A DNA stretch of 64,000 nucleotides from Rhizobiaceae bacterium (lineage in GTDB: Bacteria; Pseudomonadota; Alphaproteobacteria; Rhizobiales; Rhizobiaceae): assembly GCA_039969995.1 (NCBI GenBank), contig JBDVMU010000006.1:5618-69617 (forward strand), read 5' to 3'. The translations under genes were made by a program, and so were the position numbers. Each line of letters opens with the position of its first letter. Positions within the stretch are counted from its first letter, which is position 1. Of the stretch, positions 3,731-64,000 are shown one piece after another. The notes beneath the pieces were generated by a model, which saw only the letters and a program-made list of their open reading frames with translations, ran no database searches and was not told the DNA's origin.

Positions 3731-4818
3731 GCAAGCGCCTTGAGTTCGCCCATTACTGCCGCAGTGATTTCCACGACACCGGCATTGCCGCCGCGTTCAG
3801 TGGACACCAGCGAGCCATCACGATAGGCGTTATCGACTGCCAGTTGAAGAAGACGTGCCGCTTCAGCATAGGCTTCGTGGTTCTTCTCAACGGCCAGCCA
3901 GTCAAGCATCATCGCGCCAGAAAGGAACATGGCGGTTGGGTTTGCCTTGCCGGTACCGGCAATATCCGGGGCGGAACCATGGCATGGCTGGAAAACTGCA
4001 TGGTCATCACCAATATCGGCAGAAGGAGCCATGCCAAGACCACCGATCAGACCGGCAGCCAGATCGGAAAGAATATCGCCATACATGTTTTCAGTGACCA
4101 TGACGTCATAGATCCAGGGGCGACGCACCATTTCCATCGCAACCGCATCAACATAGCCGTAGCGCTTGCAGATATCGGGATAATTTACAGCAACCTCATC
4201 GAACATATCGCGCCAGAAGGCCATGGACTTGAACACATTGGCCTTGTCAACGCTGGTGACTTCACCCGCATGTCCCCCAGCCTTGCGCTGTTGAGCCAGT
4301 TTGAAGGCAAAGTCGGAAACCTGCTTGACACCCTTGCGCGTAATTACCTGGGTGTCCGTAGCCTGGTTATCATCGCGAGACCCTTTGCCGACAGAGGCGA
4401 ACAGGCCCTCAGTCGATTCCCGAACCAGAACAAAGTCCAGTTCGTTGCCGCGAGGGTCAGCCAGAGGCCCCTTGACACCGGGCACAGAACGCACCGGACG
4501 CACACCAGCGTAAAGGTCCAGAATGAAACGCAGCTCAATCTGCGGAATAATTTCCGTGCCATCTGGATAGCGCACCGAAGGATCGCCCATGGCAGCGAGC
4601 AGGATAGCATCGGCTGAACGGCATCCCTCGATGGTCTCATCGGGCAGCGCCGTTCCAAGTTTGGTATAAGCGCCAGCGCCGGCCTCAAGCCAGTTCTCAT
4701 TCATCGGCGCTTCACCCACCTGAGCCAGAGCCTGTTGTATCAGTTCAACACAGGGCTTTGTGATTTCCATGCCGATGCCGTCACCCGGCAAAATTGCGAT
4801 CGTCAGATTAGAGGCCAT
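3727..4818 (-). CDS. Isocitrate/isopropylmalate dehydrogenase family protein (tartrate / D-malate dehydrogenase-like)
   Basis: The 363-aa ORF begins IAILPGDGIGMEI and has family motifs throughout. Confidence 0.85.
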   Translation of the reverse strand: MASNLTIAILPGDGIGMEITKPCVELIQQALAQVGEAPMNENWLEAGAGAYTKLGTALPDETIEGCRSADAILLAAMGDPSVRYPDGTEIIPQIELRFILDLYAGVRPVRSVPGVKGPLADPRGNELDFVLVRESTEGLFASVGKGSRDDNQATDTQVITRKGVKQVSDFAFKLAQQRKAGGHAGEVTSVDKANVFKSMAFWRDMFDEVAVNYPDICKRYGYVDAVAMEMVRRPWIYDVMVTENMYGDILSDLAAGLIGGLGMAPSADIGDDHAVFQPCHGSAPDIAGTGKANPTAMFLSGAMMLDWLAVEKNHEAYAEAARLLQLAVDNAYRDGSLVSTERGGNAGVVEITAAVMGELKALA

Positions 4819-22086: not shown

Positions 22087-24156
22087 TTACTTGGTGATGG
22101 CCAGTTCAGCCAACTGTTCAGCAATCGACTGGAAGGTCGCCACAAGCTGCGAGTTGTTCTGCGCATCGTAATATTGCTTGCTGCCGCCCAAATCAGAGGA
22201 TGCACACGTTTCCAGCATTGTCTTCACGCTGGATCCATTCGGCACGTCAAATGCAATCGTATAGATGGAAATGCCGGCGGCCTTGGCATTTTCGCAGGTT
22301 TCCACCAAATGCTCGTCCATGGCCATACGGAAGGTTGTATAGCTGTGACTCGGATTGGCGATTTCATCAAAACCATCAAAGATGCGTTCATTTTCCGAAT
22401 GACCCCAGGTGTTATAGAACGACTTGTTGCGCTTTGAATAACTATATGAAGTGATGGGGTAATTGGTGTTGTTACCGTCGGTCATGACAATCATGATCTT
22501 CTTGTTGTCGGCTACCGAATAGTCACGCCCCTGGGTGAAGGGTTCGCTTGGTGAAAGCGTTCGCCAGCCCCAAGATACACCAGCAGGAATGTTGGTCGAC
22601 CCACGCGCTTGCATGCTGGAAATATCACTAATCACCTGGTTCTTCGAAGTTGTCAGATCGGTGATTTCCTGAACCGTACAAAAAGCGTTTGGTCCACCCT
22701 GGGTACCCAACACGTAAGGCAAACTTGACCGGTTATTGTTGACGTCTCGAGGCGATGGATTGTTAAAATATTTCCATGTCCAACGCTGACGGCTGTACTG
22801 GTCATCGCCGGTCCCGGTGTTGTCAGAAGATTTGGGGTGACCCAACGAGGCAGGGAAGTTGTGATCATCTTCAAGATAGTTGTTGTAATACCATTCTTCA
22901 GAGATCCGGTTGCCGTTCTGATAGGAGACAGAATTTGACGTCTCACCGATATACTCACCGCGCTTATATTCGATGCGATCATCCCAGGATGGGCGATATC
23001 CCCAGTCCTGAGGGTGCCTTGTTCCGCGGTAGCCGTCGCTCCACACTTCGCAACGACGATTACTGCGTGTTCTCTGGCGACCGCGACGCCAGTAATACTG
23101 GCTCTGGAACTGGTCACAGATTTCCTGACCTGAGGACACGGTTAAGTTCTGCTCATAGTCGCCCGACCAATTGTCTGGCGTATCAGGTGCAAAAGTGGGC
23201 ACAAAAACTGTGTCCGGCTTTGTAACATCCGGTGTCGTATCGCGCGTATGCTCAGGATAAGGCCGCGATTCGACACATCCAGCCCAACTAATGCCCGGCA
23301 ATTGGTCGTAGAGGGTAAATCGTGTCAATGGTTGACCGCTCGATGTGCGATAGCTGTTTCCAACCTTGACGGCATCAGGATCTGAATCCCAATCGAGATA
23401 TTCGTGGTGGTAGGTACCAACTCCGGTTGTGTCCATCCAGGACGCATTCTTGTTGCTCGATCCAACATTGACCATGCCGGCAAATGGCACCAACGAGAAT
23501 TTGATCGGATCAGGACGCGATTGCTGACCCATTGTCGTGTGCAAAGTGTTGACGAGATCAGCAGCAGCTGAACGCAATGTGCCGATCTTGCCTCCGGAGC
23601 CCATTGAACCTGAATTATCAAGAACAAGCGCAATTTCAATTGTATCACTGCCGCACTGCACCTCAGCTTCGGCGGTCATGTGAACCATTTCTTGGTCTTC
23701 ACTGGCCCGCTTGGAACCATCAATGATCCCTTGCCTGCCGCCAGCTCCTGCAACATTTGTGGTTGCGGCGCGCATGAAAGCAAAAAACACTTTTTTGCGG
23801 AGTGTCGCCGTTGCTGCCACTGGACTGGAGGCGCAATCTCCGTCGCCCATATCGAAAGCAATGGAAGCATCGCTGATATCGGCCGCAATATTCCGGATAT
23901 TGCCGTAGAACAGCTCTTCACCTGCCGCAGCAGCCTTGGAGGTGCTGCCTGTCGCTGCCAATGTCTTGGCTGCCATCAACGTACCGGCATCAACTGCATT
24001 TTGAAAATTGATGCGCGCGCGATACAGCTCCGCCGTATCAACGCCTGCTCCTGTCATCAACAACAGAAACGGAGTGCTCAGACCAACCAGCAGCTTAACA
24101 CTACCGCGTCTGTCTATCCCGAATTCTCTCACCCGCTCAAATAGGCGCTTCAACAT
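22087..24156 (-). CDS. TadG-like (TadE/TadG N-terminal) protein with a von Willebrand factor A domain
   Basis: The ATG at 24156 gives MLKRLFERVREFGIDRRGSVKLLVGLSTPFLLLMTGAGVDTAELYRAR. A VWA MIDAS-like motif (LVLDNSGSMG) is present, and a large W/Y/R/N-rich insert lies mid-protein. Confidence 0.8.
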   Translation of the reverse strand: MLKRLFERVREFGIDRRGSVKLLVGLSTPFLLLMTGAGVDTAELYRARINFQNAVDAGTLMAAKTLAATGSTSKAAAAGEELFYGNIRNIAADISDASIAFDMGDGDCASSPVAATATLRKKVFFAFMRAATTNVAGAGGRQGIIDGSKRASEDQEMVHMTAEAEVQCGSDTIEIALVLDNSGSMGSGGKIGTLRSAAADLVNTLHTTMGQQSRPDPIKFSLVPFAGMVNVGSSNKNASWMDTTGVGTYHHEYLDWDSDPDAVKVGNSYRTSSGQPLTRFTLYDQLPGISWAGCVESRPYPEHTRDTTPDVTKPDTVFVPTFAPDTPDNWSGDYEQNLTVSSGQEICDQFQSQYYWRRGRQRTRSNRRCEVWSDGYRGTRHPQDWGYRPSWDDRIEYKRGEYIGETSNSVSYQNGNRISEEWYYNNYLEDDHNFPASLGHPKSSDNTGTGDDQYSRQRWTWKYFNNPSPRDVNNNRSSLPYVLGTQGGPNAFCTVQEITDLTTSKNQVISDISSMQARGSTNIPAGVSWGWRTLSPSEPFTQGRDYSVADNKKIMIVMTDGNNTNYPITSYSYSKRNKSFYNTWGHSENERIFDGFDEIANPSHSYTTFRMAMDEHLVETCENAKAAGISIYTIAFDVPNGSSVKTMLETCASSDLGGSKQYYDAQNNSQLVATFQSIAEQLAELAITK

Positions 24157-24260
24157 GTTTCCTACTCCAACATGAAATTTTGCGGGACATCGAATGATGC
24201 CCAGACGCAAAACGCATTAGTTCACGCATAATAATGCAGGGGAGAGGTTGAGGATCGTTT

Positions 24261-24298
24261 GAAAAAGAAAGTTAAAATGCCGTTATGGAATTAACGGC
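24261..24298 (-). terminator. Possible rho-independent terminator of the sbtA-like gene
   Basis: The hairpin GCCGTTA-N6-TAACGGC at 24279-24298 is followed on the minus strand by a T-rich tract. Confidence 0.4.
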
Positions 24299-24341
24299 GT
24301 GTTTACCGTGTCGATGGTGCTGCCACAGTGACCTCTCGACC

Positions 24342-25313
24342 TCAGGATGCCCCTTTTGCCAGCCAAAGATAAAATGGCAGGCCAACGGCGATGTTGAAGG
24401 GAAAAGTGACGCCGAGAGACATCGTCAGATATATTCCTGATTGGGCCTGTGGCAAAGCAATCTTCATCGCCGCCGGCACGGCAATGTAGGAGGCGGACGC
24501 CGACAACACCATCATCAGGAACACACCACCCTGCGACAGACCCAATATCCAACCTGTCGCATAGCCAGCAAAACAGCCCACCAGCGGCATAATGCAACCA
24601 AACGCAAACAACCCACCGGTCAGCGATTTGCGGTTTTCCACCAGGCTGCGTCCGGCAGACAGGCCCATATCGAGCAGAAACAGACAAAGAATGCCGGTAA
24701 ATGGCACAATGATAAATGGCTTAACGTCATTGAGCCCTTCCTGCCCGGTGATGACACCGATGATAAACGATCCGACCAGAAGCACGATCGATCCGTTACC
24801 GACAATATCGCGCAACAACTTGCTCTGTGATTGCGCCCGCACGCCCCGCGTTCCGGCAATCCACAGCGCCGAAAGAATGGCCGGCACTTCCATGACAGCA
24901 GCAACCGCCACCAGATAGCCTTCAGCAACCATGACGTTGAGTTCCAGCAGACTGCTGGCGGTGACGAAAGTGACAATCGAAATCGAACCATAGTGGCCAG
25001 CAACGGCAGCCGCATTAACATCGTCCAGCCTGGTCAATACCCGCAGCAGGAAGAAAGCAATGAATGGCAACAGGAAAGACAGAACCATACCCGCCAGCAA
25101 AGTGGCGACAATCTGCCATGTTATTTCATTGCTGATCAGACTGGCGCCACCCTTGAAGCCGATGGCGAACAGCAAATAGATCGACATCACCTTGGCAGCA
25201 CCATCTGGTATCGATAAATCGCTGCGGGCAACTGCCGCCAACATGCCGAGCACAAAGAACAAGATGGTCGGCACGAGTAAACTCGCGGCGAGCATGGAAA
25301 GTGCTGCGTCCAT
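24342..25313 (-). CDS. Sodium-dependent bicarbonate transport family permease (SbtA-like, Sbt_1)
   Basis: The 323-aa ORF contains LLVPTILFFVLGMLAAVARSDLSIPDGAAKVMSIYLLFAIGFKGGASL. Confidence 0.8.
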   Translation of the reverse strand: MDAALSMLAASLLVPTILFFVLGMLAAVARSDLSIPDGAAKVMSIYLLFAIGFKGGASLISNEITWQIVATLLAGMVLSFLLPFIAFFLLRVLTRLDDVNAAAVAGHYGSISIVTFVTASSLLELNVMVAEGYLVAVAAVMEVPAILSALWIAGTRGVRAQSQSKLLRDIVGNGSIVLLVGSFIIGVITGQEGLNDVKPFIIVPFTGILCLFLLDMGLSAGRSLVENRKSLTGGLFAFGCIMPLVGCFAGYATGWILGLSQGGVFLMMVLSASASYIAVPAAMKIALPQAQSGIYLTMSLGVTFPFNIAVGLPFYLWLAKGAS

Positions 25314-25335
25314 AATTTCAAACTTCCTGACTGCG

Positions 25336-25383
25336 AATTGAGCGGCGAGTTAAGCGGCAAGTTGAGCGGCGGCTAGACGGCTG
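25336..25383. repeat. Intergenic tandem repeat with a period of about 12 nt (AGTTGAGCGGCG x3-4), a member of the GCGGCGAG/CTCGCCGC family
   Basis: Read directly: aattgagcggcg agttaagcggca agttgagcggcg gctagacggctg. Confidence 0.8.
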
Positions 25384-26584
25384 GAGCCTGGCTGGAATTA
25401 ACCTTGGCTGCGTTAGGCTGTCCCCTGGTCGCCAGATGCAACACCACGAAACCAGTGACCGCCGATAACCCGGACCCCAGCAACACACCAATGCGCACCG
25501 CATTCATCATCTCGTCTGAACTGAAGGCCAGCGAACCGATGAACAAGCTCATCGTGAAGCCGATACCCGTCAGACAGGCGACGCCGTAAATCTGCATCCA
25601 GTTGACCCCCTGCGGCAGACGCGTCACGCCGGATTTAACCGCCAGCCAGGTCGCCCCGAAGACACCGATCTGCTTACCGATGAACAATCCAGCAGCAATC
25701 CCGAGCGGCAACGGAGCCAGCAAATCGCTGAACTGCACACCCTCAAGCCGCACGCCCGCATTTGCAAAGGCGAAGACCGGCAGGATCAGGAAAGCCGCCC
25801 ACGGATGCAGCGAATGCTCCAACTTATGCAACAACGGCTTTTCGTCATCCGGCGACTTCGACGGAATGGCCAGCGCGATCAACACACCCGCCAAAGTAGC
25901 ATGCACACCCGATTTCAGCACACAGGCCCACATGAAGATGCCGATCAACAGATATGGTGCCAAAGCCCGCACACCCAGGCGGTTCAAAACCACCGCCAGA
26001 ACAAAACCCATCATCGACAAGGTCAGCGCGTTGATCGACAAATCGGAGGTGTAGAACATCGCAATAATGATGATCGCGCCGAGATCGTCGATGATCGCCA
26101 CCGCCAACAGGAACACTTTCAATGCGACCGGCACGCGCTTGCCAAACAGCGCCAAGACACCCAGCGCGAAGGCGATGTCAGTTGCTGCCGGAATGGCCCA
26201 GCCGCTCAGCGATTCCGCATTGCCCCAGTTGATCCAGCAGAACACAAGCGCCGGAACCGCCATCCCGCCAATCGCCGCCAGCAGCGGCAACAAGGTCTTG
26301 TCGATGCTCGACAATTCCCCCGACAACACTTCGCGTTTGATCTCCAGCCCGACGAGGAAGAAGAAAATCGCCATCAAACCATCATTAATCCACAACAGAG
26401 CCGGTTTGGAAATCTCAAACGACCCCGCCCCGACGCGCAAATTCGTCGCCAGAAAACTGTCATAAAATGGCGCCAGACCGCTATTCGCCAACGCCAACGC
26501 CACCAGCATGGCAAAGATCAAAACAATACCGCCACTGGCCTCCAGCTTGAGGAACGATTGGATGGTCCGAATTGTGTACTGCAT
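25373..26584 (-). CDS. nhaA: Na+/H+ antiporter NhaA
   Basis: The 403-aa ORF contains LKLEASGGIVLIFAMLVALALANS, ALLWINDGLMAIFFFLVGLEIKRE and AIIDDLGAIIIIA. Confidence 0.92.
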   Translation of the reverse strand: MQYTIRTIQSFLKLEASGGIVLIFAMLVALALANSGLAPFYDSFLATNLRVGAGSFEISKPALLWINDGLMAIFFFLVGLEIKREVLSGELSSIDKTLLPLLAAIGGMAVPALVFCWINWGNAESLSGWAIPAATDIAFALGVLALFGKRVPVALKVFLLAVAIIDDLGAIIIIAMFYTSDLSINALTLSMMGFVLAVVLNRLGVRALAPYLLIGIFMWACVLKSGVHATLAGVLIALAIPSKSPDDEKPLLHKLEHSLHPWAAFLILPVFAFANAGVRLEGVQFSDLLAPLPLGIAAGLFIGKQIGVFGATWLAVKSGVTRLPQGVNWMQIYGVACLTGIGFTMSLFIGSLAFSSDEMMNAVRIGVLLGSGLSAVTGFVVLHLATRGQPNAAKVNSSQAPAV

Positions 26585-33107: not shown

Positions 33108-34001
33108 ATGACCCGCAGCGGGAGAGCGGCTATGCCGATTGGCGTGATTTCAGTTTATGGGGCGTTGATCGTTTGGGCCGGCCTGCTGATCTATGGTGGA
33201 AGGCGTCGATCCTACCAACCATTTTTGATTTTTGGCATCGGCCTAATGCTGTTTTTGAACGCTGGATATTTCATATCGGGAGCGCCAAACGCCATTGCCA
33301 ACTTCATTGGCATTTATGACGTGCTGATTAATATCGGCCTCGGTTCTGCCAATGAAGCCGCGGCAGTTTCAACCTGCCAGGGCAATGCCTGCACCGTGTG
33401 GGGCGACAGATTTATCAGCCATCCTGCTTGGGGGACGGCGTTCTATGATCGATTTGCCAACGGGTCGGAGTTCAGGTCGACCCTGCTCTATGGTCATATT
33501 CTGTTCAACTCGCTGGCCTTTGTCCTGGTTCATATCCAACTGATGCGCCCCGGCTTTGCAGAGCACAAAAATGCGCACCGCTTGATGGGGCGCGTGTCTT
33601 TTGCAGCGCTGACTCTGAGCCTGATCTGTGCTGTCTGGCTGGCATCCCAACACGGCTCAGTGGACGAATATGGCGGCTCACTTTCCCAATACGGTTTTTA
33701 TTCGATGGTCGCCTTTGTTTATGGATGCGCAATCATGGGCATCGTCGCTATTCGCTCTGGCGATGTGGCGCAGCACCGGGTCTGGATGTTCCGGTTTGCC
33801 GGCTCCATGTGGGGCGCGTTCTGGCTGTTCCGTGTGATGCTGTTCGTCATTGACCCCTTGCTGCGGGAATTTGAAGCTGCCGCCATTTTGATTTGCATTT
33901 GGGGCTCCGCGCCAATGGGGATTGTTCTTGGCGAACTGGTCAGGCGACACCTCGACCGGCCTCAAACTCAAGTGACAACAGCCGCAGGATCAAGCGCCTA
34001 G
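33108..34001 (+). CDS. Polytopic membrane protein, DUF2306-like
   Basis: The 297-aa ORF has about 6 TM helices and the segment HILFNSLAFVLVHIQLMRP...HRLMGRV, reminiscent of DUF2306. An alternative start lies at 33132. Confidence 0.55.
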   Translation: MTRSGRAAMPIGVISVYGALIVWAGLLIYGGRRRSYQPFLIFGIGLMLFLNAGYFISGAPNAIANFIGIYDVLINIGLGSANEAAAVSTCQGNACTVWGDRFISHPAWGTAFYDRFANGSEFRSTLLYGHILFNSLAFVLVHIQLMRPGFAEHKNAHRLMGRVSFAALTLSLICAVWLASQHGSVDEYGGSLSQYGFYSMVAFVYGCAIMGIVAIRSGDVAQHRVWMFRFAGSMWGAFWLFRVMLFVIDPLLREFEAAAILICIWGSAPMGIVLGELVRRHLDRPQTQVTTAAGSSA

Positions 34002-34017
34002 TTCGCCGTCTTCTCCA

Positions 34018-34080
34018 TTCACCGCTCACCGCTCACTGCTCGCCGTTCGTGGCTCGCCGCTCGCCGCTCGCCGCTCGCCG
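34018..34080 (+). repeat. Heptanucleotide tandem repeat (CTCGCCG-type, 9 units) immediately 3' of a stop codon
   Basis: The units are ttcaccg ctcaccg ctcactg ctcgccg ttcgtgg ctcgccg ctcgccg ctcgccg ctcgccg. Confidence 0.9.
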
Positions 34081-34180
34081 CTGTTCAGGACCCTGTCGTT
34101 ACCGGTCGGTATCTTGACTTGCATAGTGCGCCAAACAGTGGATGCTAGAGCCTTATCTCAGCGACAAATCGGAAGCCTAA

Positions 34181-35116
34181 ATGACCAAGGACCGCCCCGT
34201 ATTGGGCATGTTATTGATGCTGGGCTTTTGCGTCGTCGCCCCGATGGGCGATTCCATAGCCAAAATTTTGGGCCCAACCATTCCGCTGTTGCAGCTGCTT
34301 TTCGTGCGCTTCGCAGTGCAGGCGGTTGCTCTGTTCCCACTCGTCGTGCTGAGCGACCGTACATTGCGGACCAGCCCGCGCATATTGTGGCTGATCAGCC
34401 TGCGCACCCTGCTGCATATTTTGGGGGTTGGTGCGATGTTCCTGTCGTTGCGGTTCCTGCCCTTGGCCGACGCTATTGCCATCGCCTTTGTCATGCCGTT
34501 CATCATGCTGTTGCTGGGGCGTTTCGTTCTCAATGAGACGGTTGGCACACACCGTATGGTTGCTTGTGTGGTTGGTTTTATCGGGACGCTGCTGGTGATT
34601 CAGCCGAGTTTTGCCGAAGTTGGCGCGCCAGCGCTGCTGCCTCTATTCGTGGCAGTCGATTTTGCTCTGTTCATGCTGGTTACGCGGCAAATTGCCAAAC
34701 ATGTCGACCCGATTTCATTGCAGACAACAAGCGGGGCAATGGCTGTTGTTGTTCTAACGTTGGTTTATCTGGCAACTCTGCCGTTTGATCATTTTGACGT
34801 TTCAATGGTGATGCCAACGTCATCTGAGGTTTGGCTGTTGGTACTGATCGGCCTGCTGGGAACTTCGGCACATCTGCTGATGACCTGGTCGCTGCGCTTT
34901 GCACCTTCAGCGACGCTCGCCCCGATGCAATATCTGGAAATCCCAGTGGCAACGGTTATTGGTTTCCTCATTTTTGCCGACCTCCCCAACGGCCTCGCCG
35001 CGCTTGGTATTGTCATAACCATTCTGGCCGGGCTCTATGTAGTCTATCGCGAGCACCGGGTGGGGCGTCTGGCCCTCGCCGCAGCCACCTCTCCTGCGGC
35101 ACCGGCAGAACGGTAA
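34181..35116 (+). CDS. DMT superfamily (EamA-like) transporter
   Basis: The 311-aa ORF has 10-TM character and two EamA-like halves. Confidence 0.85.
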   Translation: MTKDRPVLGMLLMLGFCVVAPMGDSIAKILGPTIPLLQLLFVRFAVQAVALFPLVVLSDRTLRTSPRILWLISLRTLLHILGVGAMFLSLRFLPLADAIAIAFVMPFIMLLLGRFVLNETVGTHRMVACVVGFIGTLLVIQPSFAEVGAPALLPLFVAVDFALFMLVTRQIAKHVDPISLQTTSGAMAVVVLTLVYLATLPFDHFDVSMVMPTSSEVWLLVLIGLLGTSAHLLMTWSLRFAPSATLAPMQYLEIPVATVIGFLIFADLPNGLAALGIVITILAGLYVVYREHRVGRLALAAATSPAAPAER

Positions 35117-35180
35117 CCTTCGCCGCGCTGGGCACTTGTGGTAGTTTCACGCCACAACTGCCATTCGCGAGTCGTCGCTC

Positions 35181-35612
35181 TTGCTCAAAATCCTCGCCCT
35201 GTTGCTGCCCGGCCTGATTCCATCCTGGAAATTCTTCAAATCGATTGAGCCTTCGCCACGGGTGCAATGGCGGCTTATATCGGCGACCAACAGAAATGAA
35301 GACACCTGGCGGGAATTTCGTCCCCGCCCGCAACAGGTCTCTGCATTGGAGACGCTGCGGCGGCTGTTCTGGAACCCTGACTGGAACGAGTCGCTGTATC
35401 TCGTCAGCCTTGCCGAACGGCTGACCCAGAAGCCCACAGATCACAGCCATGTTGAAATCAGCCAACGCATCGCACGTCGCGTATCAACCGATTCCATCGG
35501 GTTTAGCCACATTCAATTCCGGCTTGTCTTTGTCCGCCGGGAAAAAGGAGAACTGGTTGAAGACATAACATTCCTGTCGGAGCCCTATCGTCTTGATGGG
35601 GCAGCGTCATGA
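35181..35612 (+). CDS. Hypothetical protein, possibly SdpA-like partner of the downstream HTTM-like membrane protein
   Basis: The 143-aa ORF has a TTG start and an N-terminal LLPGLIPSWKFFKSIEPSPRVQW segment. Its stop overlaps the next gene's start in an ATGA sequence. Confidence 0.5.
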   Translation: MLKILALLLPGLIPSWKFFKSIEPSPRVQWRLISATNRNEDTWREFRPRPQQVSALETLRRLFWNPDWNESLYLVSLAERLTQKPTDHSHVEISQRIARRVSTDSIGFSHIQFRLVFVRREKGELVEDITFLSEPYRLDGAAS

Positions 35613-36301
35613 GCTTCGATACCGCCCTGCGCGCCACCGAGATCCTGATCGCGCTGGCCTTCATTCAACAAAGTGCCGAGCACCTGAAGATGCCGGGCGA
35701 TGGTCGTGCGCTGTTTGGTTTGCGCATTTTGGCATGCCTAGTGCTGTTATCCGGGTTGGCGAGCTTTGGCGCCCTGATGGCGCTTGCTGCCATGAGCTTG
35801 CTCCTGCTGCATCGTTTTCAGGGGCCTTATAACGGCGGCAGTGATCGGATGGGCATTTTGATCCTTTGGTGCCTGCTGTTTGTCCATATCGCACCGTCGC
35901 CCTTTTGGCAGGCTGCGGCCTTCGGCTATCTCGCAGTGCAATTGTCGCTGTCCTATTTCGTATCCGGTTGGGTCAAACTGCTGAACCCGGAATGGCGAAG
36001 CGGTCGCGCATTGCAAGATGTATTTCAGTTCTCCACCTATCCGGTGAGTGAAAACCTGCGCCGTCTGTACCAGCGACCTGAACTTTGCTGGGCAATGTCC
36101 TGGGCCGTCATTTTGTTTGAACTGCTGCTGCCGATTGCGCTGGCCCACCCCTCTTTGCTGATAATTGCGCTGACCATTGCTGCGCTGTTTCATCTGGCCA
36201 ATGCATGCCTTTTCGGGCTGAACCGCTTTATCTGGATCTGGCTGGCCGCCTATCCATCGTTGCTGTGGTTTCAAAGCTTACTCTTTGCCGCTCACAACTA
36301 A
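35609..36301 (+). CDS. HTTM-like (SdpB / vitamin-K-carboxylase-like fold) integral membrane protein
   Basis: The 230-aa polytopic ORF has an N-terminal ALRATEILIALAFIQQ helix and an NGGSDRMGILILWCL motif resembling the HTTM G-D-G-G-D-N block. Confidence 0.55.
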   Translation: MSFDTALRATEILIALAFIQQSAEHLKMPGDGRALFGLRILACLVLLSGLASFGALMALAAMSLLLLHRFQGPYNGGSDRMGILILWCLLFVHIAPSPFWQAAAFGYLAVQLSLSYFVSGWVKLLNPEWRSGRALQDVFQFSTYPVSENLRRLYQRPELCWAMSWAVILFELLLPIALAHPSLLIIALTIAALFHLANACLFGLNRFIWIWLAAYPSLLWFQSLLFAAHN

Positions 36302-51896: not shown

Positions 51897-53384
51897 TCAA
51901 GCTTCTGTTGGCTGTTTTCTTGCACGGACCAACGACACAACGTGGATGGCCAGCACAATGATAATCAGGGTGAATATACCTGCTGCCATGGGCCGGCTGA
52001 TCCAATCATAGAGCGTATCAATGCGGGGAAGTGAGGTGCGGAAACGGGATTCGGCAATGCCCCCCAACACCATGCCCAAAATGATCGGCACGACAGGAAG
52101 GTCGAGGCGACGCAACACCATGCCAAGCAGCCCAAAACATGCAGCGATGATGCAATCCGTGAAGGAATTTCGCAGCGAATAAACGCCGACAAAAGACAAA
52201 GTGAGAATGGTCATTCCAAGGAACCGATTGGGAATCGATACCACCTTCAATAACGGCCTTGTGGCGAAGACCAAAAACAGCAGTGCAATAACATTGAGCA
52301 TCAAAAGGCACAGATAAAGAGCCATGACAAAATCCATCTGATCCCGGAACAGTCCGGGACCAGGCACGATATTGTGGACATAGAATACGGACAACATCAT
52401 TGCCGTCAGCGCTTCGCCGGGAATACCCAGCGCCAGCAGCGGGATCATCGCCGCCGCAGGCACCGCGTTGTTGGCCGCTTCCGAGGCGATAATGCCTTCC
52501 GGGGCGCCCTTGCCGATGCGCTCAGGGTTTTTGCTGATTTTCTGCGTCCAACTGTAGGATAGGAATTGTGCGGTAAATTCACCGACACCGGGGATGATCC
52601 CCATGATTGTGCCAAATCCGGCACCGGGCAAAGCGACCTTGGGAAAGCGGGTTACCTCACGCAGTCCGGAAAACAACCCGCCCTTGACCTCTGGCGTTTT
52701 CACGGCGCTGTCCTTGCCGACCAACAGCACGAAAGCCTGTGACAGGGCGAACAGTCCGAGCACCGTGACGATCAGGTCAACCCCGGACGCAAGCCAGGTC
52801 TGTCCGAAGGTATAGCGCTGGGAATATTGCACTGGTTCCAGGCCAATAGATTCCAGGAAGATTCCAAAAAACAGCAACGACCCCGCAGCAAGACTGCGAC
52901 CCCGATGGGCGATAACCACCAATAACATGCCCAGCACGGCGGCGAGGAAGATCTCTCTGGAGCCGAACAAGGGGGCAATCTTGGCCAGATAGGGCGTAAA
53001 GGCCATAAGGCAGACCACCGATACCACTCCGCCAACAAACGACGCCCCATAGGCCAGCGACAAGGCACGCGGCGCCTCCCCCCGTTTGGTCATCGGATAC
53101 CCGTCATAGGTGGTCAGCGCGTTGACCGGCGTGCCAGGGGTATTGATCAGAATTGCTGGTATCGCACCGCCATACATGGCCGAGCCATAGATGCCCAGAA
53201 GCAGTGTCAGGCCGACAACCGGCTCCAACGAAAAGGTTGCTGGCAGCAAGATCGCGATGGCAATTGCCGGGCCGACGCCAGGAATAGCGCCTATTACAAC
53301 GCCGCCAATCGCTCCGATCAGCAGCGCCAGAATAACATCTGGCCGGGCGATGATTTCAATTGCAGAGAGAAGCAGATCCATCAT
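51897..53384 (-). CDS. tctA: Tripartite tricarboxylate transporter large permease
   Basis: The 495-aa polytopic ORF has a TctA-like sequence. Confidence 0.9.
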   Translation of the reverse strand: MMDLLLSAIEIIARPDVILALLIGAIGGVVIGAIPGVGPAIAIAILLPATFSLEPVVGLTLLLGIYGSAMYGGAIPAILINTPGTPVNALTTYDGYPMTKRGEAPRALSLAYGASFVGGVVSVVCLMAFTPYLAKIAPLFGSREIFLAAVLGMLLVVIAHRGRSLAAGSLLFFGIFLESIGLEPVQYSQRYTFGQTWLASGVDLIVTVLGLFALSQAFVLLVGKDSAVKTPEVKGGLFSGLREVTRFPKVALPGAGFGTIMGIIPGVGEFTAQFLSYSWTQKISKNPERIGKGAPEGIIASEAANNAVPAAAMIPLLALGIPGEALTAMMLSVFYVHNIVPGPGLFRDQMDFVMALYLCLLMLNVIALLFLVFATRPLLKVVSIPNRFLGMTILTLSFVGVYSLRNSFTDCIIAACFGLLGMVLRRLDLPVVPIILGMVLGGIAESRFRTSLPRIDTLYDWISRPMAAGIFTLIIIVLAIHVVSLVRARKQPTEA

Positions 53385-53389
53385 CCAAC

Positions 53390-53941
53390 CTAGAAATTGA
53401 GGATCATGAAATTGCGTAGAGCCGCGGGCAGCGATTCATAAATTTGCCCGCCAGGAATTTTCACCGACAACATGGACTTAAACACAAGAACGATAGAAAA
53501 ACCCGTCAGTGCTGCAGCAGCAAGGCGGGGCCTGGATCGGTAACCCAACCGCCAGGTCAGCAGGACACAAAACAGCAAAGTGGCAAGCAGGTAACCGATT
53601 GTCGGCACCACCGTCACGTAAACCAGAAACCAACCGGCAAATTCGATGGCCTTGAGCCAGTCGAACAATTCAGCGGCCACATCGCCAGTGGCCCTGGAGC
53701 GAAAACGGCGAACGGTGACAATCAATTCCCCTGCCCCGAAGAGCACCATTCCGCAGATGGCCATGACAGGCCAAAAGCCCGGTTGATTGATTAGACTTTT
53801 GCTGGAACTCCAGGTGACCTGCGAACCAATCTGACTAAGCAGAAACAGTCCAATGCCAAAGGCCACAAACGCAAAGACAAGCTCTGCCCGATGTGGGGGT
53901 TTTTCACCTGCCGTAACCGGCTCAGCTTGCGAACGCTCCAT
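53390..53941 (-). CDS. tctB: Tripartite tricarboxylate transporter small membrane protein
   Basis: The 183-aa ORF has 4 TM helices and lies between the tctC and tctA genes. Confidence 0.8.
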   Translation of the reverse strand: MERSQAEPVTAGEKPPHRAELVFAFVAFGIGLFLLSQIGSQVTWSSSKSLINQPGFWPVMAICGMVLFGAGELIVTVRRFRSRATGDVAAELFDWLKAIEFAGWFLVYVTVVPTIGYLLATLLFCVLLTWRLGYRSRPRLAAAALTGFSIVLVFKSMLSVKIPGGQIYESLPAALRNFMILNF

Positions 53942-54052
53942 GATCGGCCCAGCAAAGTAGAAATTAGGATGGTAACAGGGGGCACGAATTGTGCCGCCCT
54001 GTCAAACTTGGTGGGGGATCAGCGTCCGAAGTCCCCAATCCCGACGACGACC

Positions 54053-58547: not shown

Positions 58548-58613
58548 CAGCTCGCCGCTGCAACTCACCGCCACAGCTCACCGCATTAGCTCGCCGCTGC
58601 GATCAGCGCTCAC
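58548..58613. repeat. Intergenic tandem repeat of the CTCGCCGC/CTCACCGC family (period about 13 nt, about 5 units)
   Basis: Read directly: acagctcgccgct gcaactcaccgcc acagctcaccgc attagctcgccgct gcgatcagcgctcac. Confidence 0.85.
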
Positions 58614-59961
58614 TGAAAGCCTGGCCGACTGAACGGTAGATGGGTTTCAACAGATAGCGCATCAGTGACTTGGTGCCGGTATAAATTTCGGCCTGGGCAA
58701 CCATGCCGGGCAGAATTGGTTTTTCGCCAGCTGCGGAATTCAACTTCTGCCGATCCAGATCAAGCTTGGCAGTATAATAGAATTCACCATTTTCATTCTG
58801 CGAGGTTGTTGGAGAAAGAACCGCAATTTTGCCGTTGGCATATCCATAAGTTTCATTGTCATAGGCGGTGACCATGACCCGCGCTTTGGAGCCGACGGCG
58901 ATATGGCCGATATGTTCGGGTGGCACATTGACCTTCACTTCGATTTTTTCGGTGACCGGAACCAGTTGCACGGTGACTTCGCCAGGCTTGACGACCTCGC
59001 CGGCATTTTGGGCTGCGATTGTCTGAACAATGCCCGCAACAGGCGCCCTTACATCCTGACGCGCCAGCCTGGACGTGAGGTTTTCAAGTTTTTGATTGAG
59101 GGCCGTGATCTGTTTTTCGATCTCGGAGAGTTCGGAAATCCACTGACTGCGTTTGGTTGCCTTAAGATTGGCCAACTGGCTTTCAGCTTCCTCAATCTTG
59201 CGCTCGGCTACGGTGAGCGAGCCCTCTGTACGGTCGAACTGCAGCTCACTATCCTGCAGGGCCAAGGTCGCATCCATGTGCTTTTCGCCGGTTGCCAGAC
59301 CTTTTCTCAACAGTCCCTGCAGAACCCCAATGCGAGACTTGCGCAGCTCGATCTCGGCCTGGTGCTTTAAGCTCTCAGAATAATGCGTATGCAATTCGGA
59401 CTTACGCTGTGCGATGACCAGATTTGCGGCGCTGACGCTGGCCAGAAATGCCTGCTTCTCTGCCTCAAAGAGCGCCGCCTGATCGCGAACGATGGATCCA
59501 TAATCTGGTTGGAAGGGCGAAAAATCTGGGTGCTTTCTGTCGATCAGGGATAAAAGCCGCACCCGTTCGATTGCAAGTGTAACCCGTTGGGTGGTCGACA
59601 ACGTCAGTTCAGTTTCAACATCGGGAGCGCTGACCGTCATGAGCAAATCTCCAGATTCGACCAGGTCGCCCTCTTTTACACTGACGGATGAAACAATGCC
59701 GCCATCCAGATGCTGAGTTTCCACGACGTTTCCCGAGGGAATAATTTGCCCTTGGGCAACGACAATTTCGTGTATCGGGGCAAACGATGCCAGGCCGATC
59801 AGTCCGGCGACAAGCACGCTGACCAGTAAAAGGACATGACTGTAAAGCCTGGAGAATTGACCGTAATTGATTTCGAGGGGGAGAGACAGCTTGTCTTGAG
59901 GTAAGCTGGTTTTCTTTTTGAAAAGCGCCATCTGCGGATACCGATACGAGAAAAATGGCAT
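58603..59961 (-). CDS. HlyD family type I secretion periplasmic adaptor
   Basis: The 452-aa ORF has an N-terminal TM helix, a long coiled-coil and a C-terminal beta-barrel with GMVAQAEIYTGTKSLMRYLLKPI. An alternative start lies at 59931. Confidence 0.9.
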   Translation of the reverse strand: MPFFSYRYPQMALFKKKTSLPQDKLSLPLEINYGQFSRLYSHVLLLVSVLVAGLIGLASFAPIHEIVVAQGQIIPSGNVVETQHLDGGIVSSVSVKEGDLVESGDLLMTVSAPDVETELTLSTTQRVTLAIERVRLLSLIDRKHPDFSPFQPDYGSIVRDQAALFEAEKQAFLASVSAANLVIAQRKSELHTHYSESLKHQAEIELRKSRIGVLQGLLRKGLATGEKHMDATLALQDSELQFDRTEGSLTVAERKIEEAESQLANLKATKRSQWISELSEIEKQITALNQKLENLTSRLARQDVRAPVAGIVQTIAAQNAGEVVKPGEVTVQLVPVTEKIEVKVNVPPEHIGHIAVGSKARVMVTAYDNETYGYANGKIAVLSPTTSQNENGEFYYTAKLDLDRQKLNSAAGEKPILPGMVAQAEIYTGTKSLMRYLLKPIYRSVGQAFSER

Positions 59962-60102: not shown

Positions 60103-62361
60103 TCAGTTCTGCATCAACGGGATTATCTTTTGAGGAGAACCAATGGCAATCACCGATCCATTGTTGAGGTAAACCAACTCATCGCACATCGGCAGCACAT
60201 CAATGTCATTGGTGGCCATGATCACCGTCGCTGTTTTTTTCAACTCCGTCAGTCGCTGTGAGAAACAGGCACGCCCCTCTGGGTCGAGATGGGCAAATGG
60301 TTCGTCAAACAGGTAGATCTTTGATTTTTTGGCGTAGGCGCGGGCGAGTGAAAGTCTTTGACGCAAACCTTCAGGCAGTGCCTCGATAAACCGGCCAGTC
60401 ATGCGCGTCTCGGCACCTTCGGGAAAATTCTCATCTTTTTCAATGTCGATACCTGCCGCAGCCAGGGCCTGACCAATGTCATCATCAGTCGCAGTTGGCT
60501 GGAACAACCGAATGTTCTGAGCAACAGTTCCGTAAAAGAAAATCGGATCTTGTGGCACATAGGAGATGGAGGCACGCAATTCCCCCGGGTCGATCTGTTT
60601 CAGATTGAGACCATCCACGAACACCGCGCCAGCCTGCGGTCGGTAGAGGCCGATAATGAATTTCAACAAGGTGGACTTACCCGACGAATTGGCTCCGGTC
60701 AGAGCTGTCATCGCTCTGGACCGGAAATCTATGGTGACGCCACGAGCAACCGGCTCGGATCTGGAATTGTAGCGAAATCCAACATTCGACAATCGCACTT
60801 CGCCGCTATAGTTGCGAAAAATACCCAAAGAGCGGTTGATTGAGCGTTCAGATGAAAGCCGCATCAACTGGTTCACCTGGCGCACAGATTCACTCATCTG
60901 GCTGATATTGGAGAAACTCAAGAACAAAGTCTGGATGGGTGACAGCACCTTCCAGACCAGCATCATTATGGCGATCAATGCACCGGTGCTGATGCTGTCA
61001 TCCAGCACCAAAAGCGTTCCAATCCATAGGGTCGCAATGCCTGCAATCATGACCAACCCCTGGGATACACTGTTCAGAACCCCGTCAAAGAACTGGCTCT
61101 TGAATTTCAAATGGGTCAGTTCAGATAGATAGGCCTCGAAGCGTTTTTGCCAAATCTGTTCCGCATCCAATTGCTTGACAGTTGCAGAAATCTCCATTGT
61201 TTCCAGGAGGAAATTTTGCGTCTGACTCCTGGCCTTTCCGGTTTGAAGGACGTTTCTTTTGGTCAACGGAACAGTAATCATGCCCATAGCCAGAAAGACC
61301 GCGCCGAGACAAACCGGCACCCAGATCAGCGAGCCTCCAATAGCCCCGATGACCATGAAAAAGATTATGATAAAAGGAAAATCCAAAGCCGAGTTGGCGA
61401 CCTTGCCGGAAAAAAAGCTGGAAATGGACTGGAATTGCTTGATCCGCATCAACTGTGAGCTGATTGATGCCGACTCTGTCATAGATATCTGAAAACCCAG
61501 AATTTTTGCAAAACTCTCGCTCACCAGGGAGCCGGTAAATCGGGCACCAACAAACGCCACCAGTTTGCCACGTAGCGAACGCAGATAGAGCTCAAAGCCG
61601 ATTATTAGCACCATTCCCACAGCCAGATAGACCAATGTATCAGCCGCCGAAGCGGCGAACACTTTGTCGTAAACCGTCATCACATAGAGCGGCGTCGCGA
61701 GGCCAAGCAGGTTGATAAACAAAGTGATCAGCCCGACACCAAAAATCTGCTGTTTGAAGTTGAGAAGTGCTTCAAAAAACCAGTTGTACTTGAGGTCCTT
61801 GCCTTCGTCCGGGTCAGCATTGAAAGAAAACAGGCAGAAATGATAGTGCGGTTGAGAGAGCTCAATTTCTTCCATCATTTCGGTTCGGCTGACCAACGCG
61901 CGAGCCTTCCCGTCTGGCAGCAATTCATAAACAACGCAGGGATAACCATCCGGTAGAATGGCCAAACAAGGTAGCTGGGAATCTTGCAACTTCTGCAGCG
62001 AGTCATTGTACAAGCGCACATTGAACCCCAGGCGCACCATGACAGCGGCAAACTGGCAGACATCCATGATTGACGATGCGTGTGGATGCGCCTCTATCAG
62101 ATGACGCGGTTCGCCAGCCCAATTGAGCGCAATCAGCAACGGCTTTACGCAGCTTTCAAAAGCGTGCGCCAACTCGCTGTCGGGTGCATGAGGGTTAGAT
62201 AGCAGGCTGCTGATTGGCGTTTGCAGCCCGCCGGGTTCAGGTGGTTGTATCGCGAAGGCTTCATGCAGGCTTTTTTGCTGATCGATCACCGCGTTGTGCT
62301 CGCCACCGGCTAATGCGGTAGCCGGGGTGGATATATCAACTGGGTTGAGTTGCTGCTTCAT
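60103..62361 (-). CDS. Type I secretion ABC permease/ATPase with an N-terminal C39-like domain (LssB/LapB-like) and a non-canonical NBD
   Basis: The 752-aa ORF has a C39-like domain (ESCVKPLLIALNWAGEPRHL...LPCLAILPDGYPCVVYEL) and a 6-TM domain. The NBD motifs are Walker A GANSSGKST, signature LPEGLRQR and Walker B IYLFDEP. The H-loop position holds Asn. Confidence 0.9.
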   Translation of the reverse strand: MKQQLNPVDISTPATALAGGEHNAVIDQQKSLHEAFAIQPPEPGGLQTPISSLLSNPHAPDSELAHAFESCVKPLLIALNWAGEPRHLIEAHPHASSIMDVCQFAAVMVRLGFNVRLYNDSLQKLQDSQLPCLAILPDGYPCVVYELLPDGKARALVSRTEMMEEIELSQPHYHFCLFSFNADPDEGKDLKYNWFFEALLNFKQQIFGVGLITLFINLLGLATPLYVMTVYDKVFAASAADTLVYLAVGMVLIIGFELYLRSLRGKLVAFVGARFTGSLVSESFAKILGFQISMTESASISSQLMRIKQFQSISSFFSGKVANSALDFPFIIIFFMVIGAIGGSLIWVPVCLGAVFLAMGMITVPLTKRNVLQTGKARSQTQNFLLETMEISATVKQLDAEQIWQKRFEAYLSELTHLKFKSQFFDGVLNSVSQGLVMIAGIATLWIGTLLVLDDSISTGALIAIMMLVWKVLSPIQTLFLSFSNISQMSESVRQVNQLMRLSSERSINRSLGIFRNYSGEVRLSNVGFRYNSRSEPVARGVTIDFRSRAMTALTGANSSGKSTLLKFIIGLYRPQAGAVFVDGLNLKQIDPGELRASISYVPQDPIFFYGTVAQNIRLFQPTATDDDIGQALAAAGIDIEKDENFPEGAETRMTGRFIEALPEGLRQRLSLARAYAKKSKIYLFDEPFAHLDPEGRACFSQRLTELKKTATVIMATNDIDVLPMCDELVYLNNGSVIAIGSPQKIIPLMQN

Positions 62362-64000
62362 TGCTCACCCGCCGCAGCGTTCCAGTGTCCAAAAGCCCCT
62401 GTCGGTTGAACGCCAGCATGGGGGATAACCTCAATCGACTCGCGCGTTACCCGAAACACATTATGACAAATGGCCAGATAACTCGGGTCGCTGGTGACCA
62501 TCAAAACCGTCATGTGATCTGCCAACCCCTGCAGGCAGGTGATCAGCTCAGCATCAATATCAGCGTCAAGAAAGGCCTGCGGTTCATCCAGCAACAGAAG
62601 TTTGGGCGACTGGGCAATTGCCCGTGCCAGCACAATCTGGCGGATCGTGCCCTCCGGTAGCGCTTCGGTGACCCCTTCGCGCAAATTCGTGTTGTAACCA
62701 TCAGGCAGTTTGTCGATGACTTTGCGCAGGCCAAGCATCTCACAGGCATTGCGCGCCTGCAGCACCGACGCACCACCACCGAAAAGTGTGAGATTGTCCA
62801 TGATCGTGCCACGAAACACAGATGTCTGCGGCGTTACATAGCCAATCGCCTGGCGCCCATTGTGACGGTAAACCGCTGGATCCTCACCGTCGATTGCCGA
62901 AATCAACCAAGGTGTATCCGAAATGGCTGACAGCGATCTCAGCACACTCGACTTACCACTGCCGTCGCCCCCTGTGAAAGCGGCAATGGTTCCACCAGGC
63001 AATTGCACGGGGTCAACTAGCCCTTGTTTAGCAGTGTGAATTACGGAAATCGAAGGCACGCCAGCATAGTTGATCTGCTTTTCTTCCGGCGATTCGGTGC
63101 TGCGAGAAACAATGGGGCTGGCTTCTTCCAGCGCCAGAACTGCGACTTGAATTTCATTCCAGGAGGCAGCCGAACGCACGACTGGCTGAATGGCTCTGGC
63201 CGCAAGCTGGCTCGCCGCTGCCAACATGCCGATCGTCATGTCTCCAAAGATCGCGATAACCGCACCGGTCGTCACCATTGTCACGGTTACCGCGTTGCCA
63301 AATGAAGTGGAAATTGTCTGGGCGCGGCTTGTCGCTTCAATCAACTGCTTGTTGAGATGAGCCGAGTTCTCCACCAAACTCTCAAACCTACGTTGAATGA
63401 AAGGTTCCATGGCTGCTGATTTCAGGGTCAGAATACCGCGCAGAGTCTCCCCGATGAAATCATACATACGGGTGCTTTGAATTTCCTGAGATTCCAGTGT
63501 GTCGCGCATGATTTTCGCAGAGCGAAATATGCTCCAGCCAAATATGCCAATCAGCAACAGTGGTACAATCACCAAGGGCCCCACAATCAGCCCGATAAAA
63601 ACCAGGAACAAAGCGGCAAACGGCAAGTCGATCAATAACAGCCGCGACGTGCCGCCATAGAAATCAGCGAGCTTGCCAATGGCATTGACGCGCTCAACCA
63701 GTTTACTGGCATGATCCTTGGTAAACTCACCATTGGTGGCCGACAAAATATTGTTCAGCGCAGCGAGCGATGTGTGATGACCGAACTTGGAGGCGTTCAG
63801 ACCAACAACATAAGACCTCGCAATGCGCAGCAATGCTTCCAGAACTGCAATGACGACCAAGCCACCGCATAGAATGTATAGGGTCGACAATGCCTGGTTA
63901 GGAATAATGCGATCATAGACCTGCAGAATCGCAATTGGGATGGCGAGACCGAACAGGTTGATAATAATCGAGGAAAAAACCACTCGCGGTGAAAGCAGAA
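62358..64000 (-). CDS. Second type I secretion-type ABC permease/ATPase, with its N-terminus off the window end, and a non-canonical NBD
   Basis: The frame is open to the window edge (...LLSPRVVFSSIIINLFGLAIPIAILQVYDRIIP). The NBD motifs are Walker A GGDGSGKSS, signature LPEGTIRQ and Walker B LLLLDEP. The H-loop position holds Ser. Its stop overlaps the start of the next ABC gene in an ATGA sequence. Confidence 0.88.
   Translation of the reverse strand, partial: LLSPRVVFSSIIINLFGLAIPIAILQVYDRIIPNQALSTLYILCGGLVVIAVLEALLRIARSYVVGLNASKFGHHTSLAALNNILSATNGEFTKDHASKLVERVNAIGKLADFYGGTSRLLLIDLPFAALFLVFIGLIVGPLVIVPLLLIGIFGWSIFRSAKIMRDTLESQEIQSTRMYDFIGETLRGILTLKSAAMEPFIQRRFESLVENSAHLNKQLIEATSRAQTISTSFGNAVTVTMVTTGAVIAIFGDMTIGMLAAASQLAARAIQPVVRSAASWNEIQVAVLALEEASPIVSRSTESPEEKQINYAGVPSISVIHTAKQGLVDPVQLPGGTIAAFTGGDGSGKSSVLRSLSAISDTPWLISAIDGEDPAVYRHNGRQAIGYVTPQTSVFRGTIMDNLTLFGGGASVLQARNACEMLGLRKVIDKLPDGYNTNLREGVTEALPEGTIRQIVLARAIAQSPKLLLLDEPQAFLDADIDAELITCLQGLADHMTVLMVTSDPSYLAICHNVFRVTRESIEVIPHAGVQPTGAFGHWNAAAGEQ

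Follow-up and report, generated by a model that had tools for sequence, protein, structure and literature searches.

A Predicted Heterodimeric Type I Secretion ABC Exporter Family with Non-Canonical ATP Sites Throughout

Overview

Three co-directional genes on the minus strand were recognized at the end of a 64,000-nucleotide stretch of DNA from a Rhizobiaceae bacterium (assembly GCA_039969995.1, contig JBDVMU010000006.1, positions 5,618 to 69,617), which is designated here as the window. They encode two ATP-binding cassette (ABC) half-transporters, ABC-2 and ABC-1, and a HlyD-family adaptor, and together they appear to represent a new heterodimeric exporter of the type I secretion system (T1SS) class, whose ATP sites are non-canonical throughout. 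Neither nucleotide-binding domain (NBD) shows the LSGGQ signature or the His of the H-loop. Judged from aligned relatives, the non-canonical ATP-site motif is a trait of the whole family and not an oddity of this locus. To our knowledge, this would be the first exporter family without a canonical signature in either domain of any member. The preferred reading, which is held with about even confidence, is that the heterodimer exports the adjacent RTX protein through two unequal ATP sites, site 1 being a slow ATPase while site 2 mainly binds ATP.

ATP-Site Motifs of ABC-1 and ABC-2

All coordinates below refer to the window and to its minus strand unless another contig is named. In ABC-1, the A-loop FRYNS (60763–60777) has the aromatic Tyr, and it is followed by the Walker A motif GANSSGKST (60670–60696) and by the Q-loop YVPQDP (60544–60561), which is in register. 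Where LSGG(Q) is expected, the signature reads LPEG (60367–60378; residues 662–665), and the next residue is L. The Walker B motif LFDEP (60298–60312) contains the catalytic Glu, and in the H-loop MATND (60205–60219) the position of His is occupied by Asn (60208–60210). ABC-2 has the Walker A motif GGDGSGKSS (62946–62972), the Q-loop region YVTPQTS (62820–62840), the signature LPEG followed by T (62649–62660), the Walker B motif LLLDEP with the catalytic Glu (62580–62597), and the H-loop VTSD (62487–62498), in which Ser (62490–62492) stands at the His position. The D-loop Asp was found in both NBDs. Of LSGGQ, only the Leu and the second Gly survive in LPEGL and LPEGT.

An earlier note, made by reading the sequence, had reported LPEG in both domains together with Asn and Ser at the H-loop position, and its coordinates for LPEG are exact. 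Both phmmer and MAFFT place the two LPEG motifs on LSGG. In the phmmer comparison with solved ABC exporters, "ealpeglrqr" of ABC-1 falls on "q.sggqkqr" and "vimatnd" on "ivvahrl", while "ealpegtirq" of ABC-2 falls on "qlsggqkqr", the latter alignment ending one residue before the His. The MAFFT alignment with canonical relatives puts the Ser of ABC-2 on the H-loop His. By direct sequence count, the substituted H-loop residue is at the Walker-B Asp +32 in both proteins. Profile alignment placed no canonical LSGGQ or His at either position. Misalignment as a source of the odd motifs was ruled out by the agreement of HMMER, run against solved structures, with MAFFT, run with canonical relatives.

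The retention of Walker A, Walker B and the catalytic Glu in both domains, which had also been claimed, was borne out. The claim of a retained Q-loop holds for ABC-1; in ABC-2, an ungapped alignment of YVTPQTS with the canonical VVPQET shows that the Gln is displaced by one residue. The A-loop of ABC-2 has Ser where relatives have the aromatic Tyr. Both sites are non-canonical in signature and His, as the note stated, but they are not equally degenerate, the loss of the A-loop aromatic and the shift of the Q-loop being found in ABC-2 only.

These features are shared by close relatives. LPEG and Thr-Asn-Asp are invariant in 8 of 8 close ABC-1 homologues with a readable NBD (53–100% identity). 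Nine of ten close ABC-2 homologues (59–100% identity) have LPEG or LPQG together with Ser, Thr or Asn, and the motif scan gave no reading for the tenth. As a separate observation, ABC-2 of the window's clade has TIRQ after LPEG (62637–62648), where other family members have x-x-Q-R; the conserved Gln-Arg pair is swapped or shifted by one in this clade.

Distribution and Signature Motifs of the Family

More than 500 loci encoding a relative were found by a genome scan, mostly from marine Alphaproteobacteria and some from Gammaproteobacteria. The family spans marine and soil bacteria, and its cultured carriers include Azospirillum lipoferum 4B, Stappia stellulata, Rhodospira trueperi, Roseospira marina, and Amphritea balenae. 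Motifs were counted in the 80 best loci from species-representative genomes, which provided 80 ABC-1 and 76 ABC-2 sequences, 156 domains in total, and 75 pairs.

LSGG was found in 0 of the 80 ABC-1 and 0 of the 76 ABC-2 domains. Gln at signature position 5 is likewise seen in 0 of 156, the residue there being always L, F, V, M, I or T, while Pro occupies signature position 2 in 43 of the 80 ABC-1 and 59 of the 76 ABC-2 domains. On these alignments, LSGGQ is replaced throughout the family by [L/M]-[P/S/A]-x-[G/S/A]-hydrophobic, of which LPEG is the form seen at this locus. The earlier note had raised the question of whether both substitutions are family-wide. That of the signature is, across 80 species (0 of 156 domains with LSGG), but the H-loop His is kept in 54 of the 80 ABC-1 and 39 of the 76 ABC-2 domains. 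Both His are missing in 21 of the 75 pairs, which fall into at least four separate clades in a neighbour-joining tree.

The 79 next-best ABC-1 homologues outside the family that were readable by the motif scan served as a control. LSGGQ is present in 71 and His in all 79 of them. The sole LPMGF in the control set belongs to P0098, which also ranks among the family matches of ABC-2. Because the control contrasts so clearly with the 0 of 156 seen for LSGG in the family, there is, by these motifs, a sharp break between the family and its nearest relatives.

Inequality of the Two ATP Sites

In an ABC dimer, one domain contributes its A-loop, Walker A, Q-loop, Walker B and H-loop to an ATP site, and the partner domain contributes its signature (PMC7756269). 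In such a head-to-tail dimer, the LPEG of ABC-2 would complete the ATP site of ABC-1, and the LPEG of ABC-1 that of ABC-2.

The motifs of the P-loop side are better conserved in ABC-1 than in ABC-2. The A-loop aromatic is kept in 77 of 80 ABC-1 and 45 of 76 ABC-2 domains, the Walker-A Lys in 77 of 80 and 63 of 76 (with Arg in 11 of the ABC-2 domains), and the Q-loop Gln in 75 of 80 and about 39 of 76; the H-loop His follows the same order (54 of 80 against 39 of 76). Conservation of the signature is reversed, that of ABC-2 (L in 69, P in 59 and G in 61 of 76) being tighter than that of ABC-1. The full cis set of Lys, Gln, Glu and His is found at site 1 only in 32 of the 75 pairs, at both sites in 11, at neither in 32, and at site 2 only in 0. 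Because the cis motifs of ABC-1 and the signature of ABC-2 are the better conserved, the site formed by the ABC-1 P-loop and the ABC-2 L-P-x-G is the likelier candidate for catalysis. The pair of the window fits this asymmetry, its extra defects sitting in ABC-2.

Site-specific co-variation in trans was also considered, between the signature Gly of ABC-2 and the catalytic core of ABC-1 (Fisher test, p = 1.4 × 10−5). It was rejected as a means of assigning the sites because the cis control is equally strong (p = 2.9 × 10−6), and clade-wide erosion is reflected in both.

Type I Secretion Operon

ABC-1 (60103–62361) is a protein of 752 residues with an N-terminal HlyB-like (C39-like) domain, a transmembrane domain (TMD) and an NBD, as recognized with Pfam, NCBIfam and an AlphaFold2 model. 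ABC-2 (62358–64000, continuing past the window end) is a half-transporter with a TMD and an NBD and without the N-terminal domain, recognized with Pfam and NCBIfam. The adaptor (58603–59961) has 452 residues and scores 307 bits against TIGR01843, the model of HlyD-family type I secretion periplasmic adaptors, above the cut-off of 208.65.

ABC-2 leaves the window at 63983–64000. A public contig of assembly GCA_039960875.1, designated L001, has the same sequence as the window, and the full ABC-2 gene is found there at 934/1072–2739, encoding 555 residues as called or 601 residues from an upstream ATG. Close ABC-2 homologues have 596–609 residues, and these lengths favour the longer start.

Against Pfam, ABC-1 scores 70 bits for ABC_membrane and 89.6 bits for ABC_tran (PF00005), and ABC-2 scores 65 and 45.5 bits; both exceed the PF00005 cut-off of 25 bits. 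Against NCBIfam, the scores for TIGR03375 (LssB), TIGR01846 (HlyB) and TIGR01842 (PrtD) are 445, 306 and 279 bits for ABC-1 and 259, 172 and 178 bits for ABC-2, all below the curated cut-offs of 693, 726 and 510 bits. The best-scoring curated model is the same for both proteins, the LssB-type T1SS permease/ATPase TIGR03375. They resemble the LssB/LssD T1SS of Legionella in this respect, but both lie far below its cut-off, as they do for the HlyB model. No curated T1SS ABC model thus reaches its cut-off with ABC-1 or ABC-2, which constitutes an annotation gap.

The AlphaFold2 model of ABC-1 has a mean pLDDT of 76. Its top structural match is HlyB in the HlyB/HlyD complex (8dck_A, E-value 1.6 × 10−36, 693 columns), a match that takes in the N-terminal domain, and PCAT1 and PrtD rank next. 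The N-terminal domain itself (61792–62361, residues ~1–190) was delimited with HlyB/LssB profiles and the HlyB structural match, while a Pfam search gave no match to it even at E ≤ 10.

Directly upstream of ABC-2, on L001 and just outside the window, an RTX gene encodes a protein with many GGxGxD repeats, which ends in ...DGMSIDFFDIEEIRW. Because the HlyD adaptor exceeds its cut-off, ABC-1 has a HlyB-like fold and an RTX protein is encoded upstream, the operon is identified as one for type I secretion, with this RTX protein as its putative substrate. In many type I systems, the TolC-like outer-membrane partner is encoded elsewhere in the genome.

In 21 family members compared, the N-terminal domain of ABC-1 has an invariant His94 and a Cys132 that is almost so. 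In C39 peptidases the order is Cys and then His, which is the reverse.

Pairing of the Two Half-Transporters

The stop codon of ABC-2 and the start codon of ABC-1 overlap in ATGA (62358–62361), which suggests translational coupling. Among the 80 species-representative loci, the order ABC-2, ABC-1, membrane fusion protein (MFP) is kept in every locus whose contig holds the region. Natural fusions of ABC-2 and ABC-1, of ~1300–1380 residues, were also found, with ABC-2 as the N-terminal half and ABC-1, including its N-terminal domain, as the C-terminal half. Examples are P0017, P0020, P0021, P0023, and the gene at 7039–11175 of L082, and the HlyB-like N-terminal domain lies between the two halves. 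Besides those from metagenomes, a fusion of 1378 residues (AZOLI_RS22950) is encoded by the cultured A. lipoferum 4B, with a HlyD adaptor downstream and a giant Ig-like protein encoded divergently beside it. It would be a convenient experimental model. Because the gene order is conserved, the genes overlap and the fusions have the same order, ABC-1 and ABC-2 most likely form a heterodimer.

Putative Substrates and Their C-Terminal Domain

Large RTX or Ig-like proteins adjoining the transporter share a C-terminal domain of ~45 residues, which occurs at 17 of 81 loci spread over the family. Its pattern is T.xLDxGxIE...LSDDASGxIxFxDGSxIxFxxIExIxW, with an aromatic final residue (W, Y or F). Substrate genes with this domain include those at 2–778 of L001, 3498–7895 of L003 and 84–5978 of L005 (minus strand), as well as those at 4802–7843 of L046, 1831–8151 of L075 and 176–799 of L083, all three on the minus strand. 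A relaxed form is present in A. lipoferum 4B (...LVLQNIERLTY). The domain is covered by no model in Pfam or NCBIfam and is probably the secretion signal of the family.

Erosion of Catalytic Residues and Selection

In 12 of the 75 pairs, no domain combines the Walker-A Lys with the catalytic Glu, and the operons are intact. These pairs include L059, L071, L074, L070, L080, L043, and L045. The cultured S. stellulata is among them, with Lys and Asp in ABC-1 and Arg and Glu in ABC-2. In the related loci L059, L071 and L074, the Walker-A Lys is replaced by Thr in ABC-1 and by Arg in ABC-2, and L070 has the catalytic Glu in neither subunit and one Walker-A Lys only.

The clade nearest to that of the window consists of L005, L006, L008, L009, L013, and L024. 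Its ABC-1 has lost the catalytic Glu and has no Gly at signature position 4, and the Q-loop of ABC-2 and both His are also lost. An RTX-repeat protein adjoins four of these six loci, and the RTX proteins of L005 and L008 end in the same C-terminal domain as the substrate of the window. As possible consequences of the unusual motifs, the earlier note had put forward very slow hydrolysis, a regulatory or gating role, or a distinct catalytic solution. From the repeated loss of catalytic residues in sister clades, a reduced dependence on hydrolysis is plausible.

Within the window's clade, the nonsynonymous divergence (dN) is 0.07–0.20 (0.13–0.20 for the NBDs), and the synonymous divergence (dS) is saturated (>1.5 or undefined), which makes the omega values rough. 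By this comparison, the genes are under purifying selection. The dN of the NBDs is ~1.5 times that of the TMDs. In ABC-2, the NBD evolves faster than the TMD, with a mean pairwise identity of 0.36 against 0.42. Conservation of TMD against NBD is weakly informative when set against the canonical control, whose members are much more closely related. The C-terminal tail of ABC-2 (62361–62480, ~40 residues), which follows the NBD, changes much more rapidly than the remainder of the protein, with 35–70% identity against 74–86% in the same comparisons.

Proposed Mechanism and Alternative Explanations

In the preferred reading, site 1 would be formed by the A-loop Tyr, Walker A, Q-loop and catalytic Glu of ABC-1 with the Asn in place of His, together with the L-P-x-G of ABC-2. 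ATP would be turned over here, probably slowly, with the Asn standing in for the switch His and the kept signature Gly in contact with the gamma-phosphate. Site 2, composed of the P-loop side of ABC-2 (no A-loop aromatic, a shifted Gln, and Ser for His) and the signature of ABC-1, would be degenerate, mainly binding ATP and holding the dimer together. The sequence comparisons show what kind of system this is, that the two genes go together, and which motifs are present and conserved; we infer from the motifs which site hydrolyses ATP, and also that hydrolysis is slow rather than absent. By analogy, Asn at the His position is not necessarily disabling, as the replacement of the active-site His of ABCC1 with Asn or Gln leaves wild-type-like transport (PMC7756269). 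The TND motif, which does not vary within the clade of ABC-1 even at 53% identity, also supports this reading.

Several points weigh against it. In HlyB, the closest studied relative, the H662A substitution abolishes hydrolysis and secretion (PMC5018854). The test of co-variation in trans does not discriminate between the sites, its cis control being as strong. We know of no active ABC ATPase with Pro at the position of the signature Ser. The persistence of the family in 12 of 75 pairs without a competent-looking site weakens the case for hydrolysis at site 1.

The main rival, unlikely though it is, holds that neither site hydrolyses ATP usefully and that the heterodimer would be a nucleotide-gated or nucleotide-stabilised protein-conducting channel, with translocation driven otherwise, for example by calcium-dependent folding of the RTX/Ig-like substrate outside the cell or by the membrane potential. 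For T1SS, an ATP-gated channel and a calcium ratchet are each still under discussion, and the hydrolysis-dead H662A variant of HlyB is in line with a loss of function on losing the His (PMC5018854). Here neither signature has the Ser or the Gln, and neither domain has the switch His. Erosion has recurred independently in intact operons, with both His lost in 21 and the Lys and Glu core lost in 12 of the 75 pairs, L070 among them, and the sister clade with the same type of adjacent substrate is without the catalytic Glu and the signature position-4 Gly of ABC-1. Such family-wide erosion appears to give this rival real weight. It is countered by the window's own NBDs, in both of which the Walker-A Lys and Walker-B Asp are still present, as is the catalytic Glu, a residue for which we know of no role beyond hydrolysis, and by the H-loop Asn-Asp, whose invariance in the clade suggests a selected function. 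In addition, the secretion rate of HlyA is calcium-independent, and hydrolysis is needed for an early step (PMC5018854). A related proposal for the family as a whole, which is regarded as doubtful, is that ATP hydrolysis is largely or wholly dispensable and that the heterodimer acts as a nucleotide-stabilised gate and a substrate receptor. Extracellular folding or some other source of energy would then drive the export of very long calcium-binding RTX/Ig-like proteins. The pair of the window would be an intermediate, with the Glu kept and the signature Ser/Gln and both switch His lost, and sister clades in which both subunits are without the Walker-A Lys, or without the catalytic Glu, would be further along.

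It is rather improbable that both sites are ordinary, fully competent ATPases, with L-P-x-G and Asn/Ser as neutral variants or variants compensated for, and with an unremarkable mechanism. In ABC-2, the A-loop has no aromatic residue, the Q-loop Gln is out of place, and Ser replaces the His; the NBD of ABC-2 evolves faster than its TMD (identity 0.36 against 0.42), and its Lys, Gln, Glu and His are freely lost in relatives. The ATPase activity of P-glycoprotein is strongly reduced when both signature Ser are lost. Such competence would nevertheless agree with the Walker-A Lys and catalytic Glu in both NBDs and with the signature position-4 Gly, which makes a backbone contact to the gamma-phosphate and is kept in both. 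Glu is tolerated at the third signature position of CFTR (G550E), and some active exporters are hydrophobic at position 5 (LSGGM, YSSGM). The tolerance of ABCC1 for Asn or Gln in place of His points in the same direction (PMC7756269). A more distant alternative, considered very unlikely, is that ABC-1 and ABC-2 do not pair and each homodimerises, giving two transporters that share one adaptor. Both are complete half-transporters, as this would need, but their strict co-occurrence and gene order in ~75 loci, the ATGA overlap suggestive of coupled translation, the single-chain fusions in metagenomes and A. lipoferum 4B, and the presence of the substrate-docking N-terminal domain on ABC-1 only all speak for a pair. 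Least credible of all, to the point of being barely worth entertaining, is an origin of the motifs in decaying genes (pseudogenes in the making) or in assembly or alignment artefacts. The source is a metagenome-assembled genome, and no reads were mapped from three RNA-seq runs labelled as the organism of the sequence-bearing DNA runs, an absence that may be listed in favour of decay but is evidence in neither direction. The open reading frames are full-length and intact, the identical sequence is present in several independent runs, and the motifs are kept in homologues at 53–87% identity, and on these grounds pseudogenes and assembly artefacts were ruled out. The dN far below dS, the agreement of the hidden Markov model and MAFFT alignments, and the occurrence of the family in cultured strains argue the same.

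Comparison with Known Systems

HlyB/HlyD/TolC of Escherichia coli (7SGR, 8DCK) shares with the system described here the architecture of C39-like domain, TMD and NBD seen in ABC-1, an adjacent HlyD-family adaptor, and an RTX substrate with a C-terminal signal. HlyB is, however, a homodimer with a canonical LSGGQ and an essential H-loop His (PMC5018854), whereas here there are two different subunits, with the N-terminal domain on one only and LSGGQ or His on neither.

Among well-known type I secretion systems, the MARTX type alone is known to us to use two different ABC proteins. In the four-component T1SS of Vibrio (RtxB/RtxD/RtxE and TolC), both of them are needed for secretion (PMC3034196). 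The gene order there is ABC, MFP, ABC, in contrast to ABC-2, ABC-1, MFP here. In the MARTX-type system of Vibrio coralliilyticus pOCN014, both ABC proteins have ~707 residues and the canonical LSGGQ, DEATSALD and AHR.

TM287/288, TmrAB, BmrCD, TAP1/2 and the ABCC proteins also have two unlike halves, encoded by adjacent genes, one site being clearly more degenerate, and exporters of this kind are good structural matches to the ABC-1 model as well. The statement of the earlier note that only one site is degenerate in known heterodimeric exporters agrees with their description in reviews (PMC7756269). In them, signature and His are canonical at the consensus site, and at the degenerate site Asp typically takes the place of the catalytic Glu (PMC7756269). 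The pair of the window differs in having Glu in both NBDs and a canonical signature or His in neither site.

Significance

Public records give the relatives generic names only, such as "ATP-binding cassette domain-containing protein". A full-text literature search, which covered few subscription journals and therefore provides absence of evidence only, found no mention of LPxG signatures, of the family itself or of exporters whose two sites are both non-canonical.

How T1SS are energised is debated, ATP being used either stepwise along the polypeptide or only to open and reset a channel, and in the channel model calcium-driven folding possibly helps to pull the substrate out (PMC5018854). The family is a natural experiment on this question, being widespread, with a conserved operon, an identifiable substrate class and graded erosion of the ATP sites. 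The series extends from the 11 of 75 pairs with the full Lys, Gln, Glu and His in both subunits to the 12 of 75 with no plausible catalytic site. The family is also a test of how far ABC transporters in general depend on the Ser and Gln of the signature and on the switch His, and its presence in cultured bacteria makes direct testing possible.

Other Features of the Window

Strong excursions in AT skew were observed in three blocks of the window, 24001–26000 (+0.26), 34001–36000 (−0.24) and 52001–54000 (+0.27). The remainder of the window is even in composition, with 54–55% GC.

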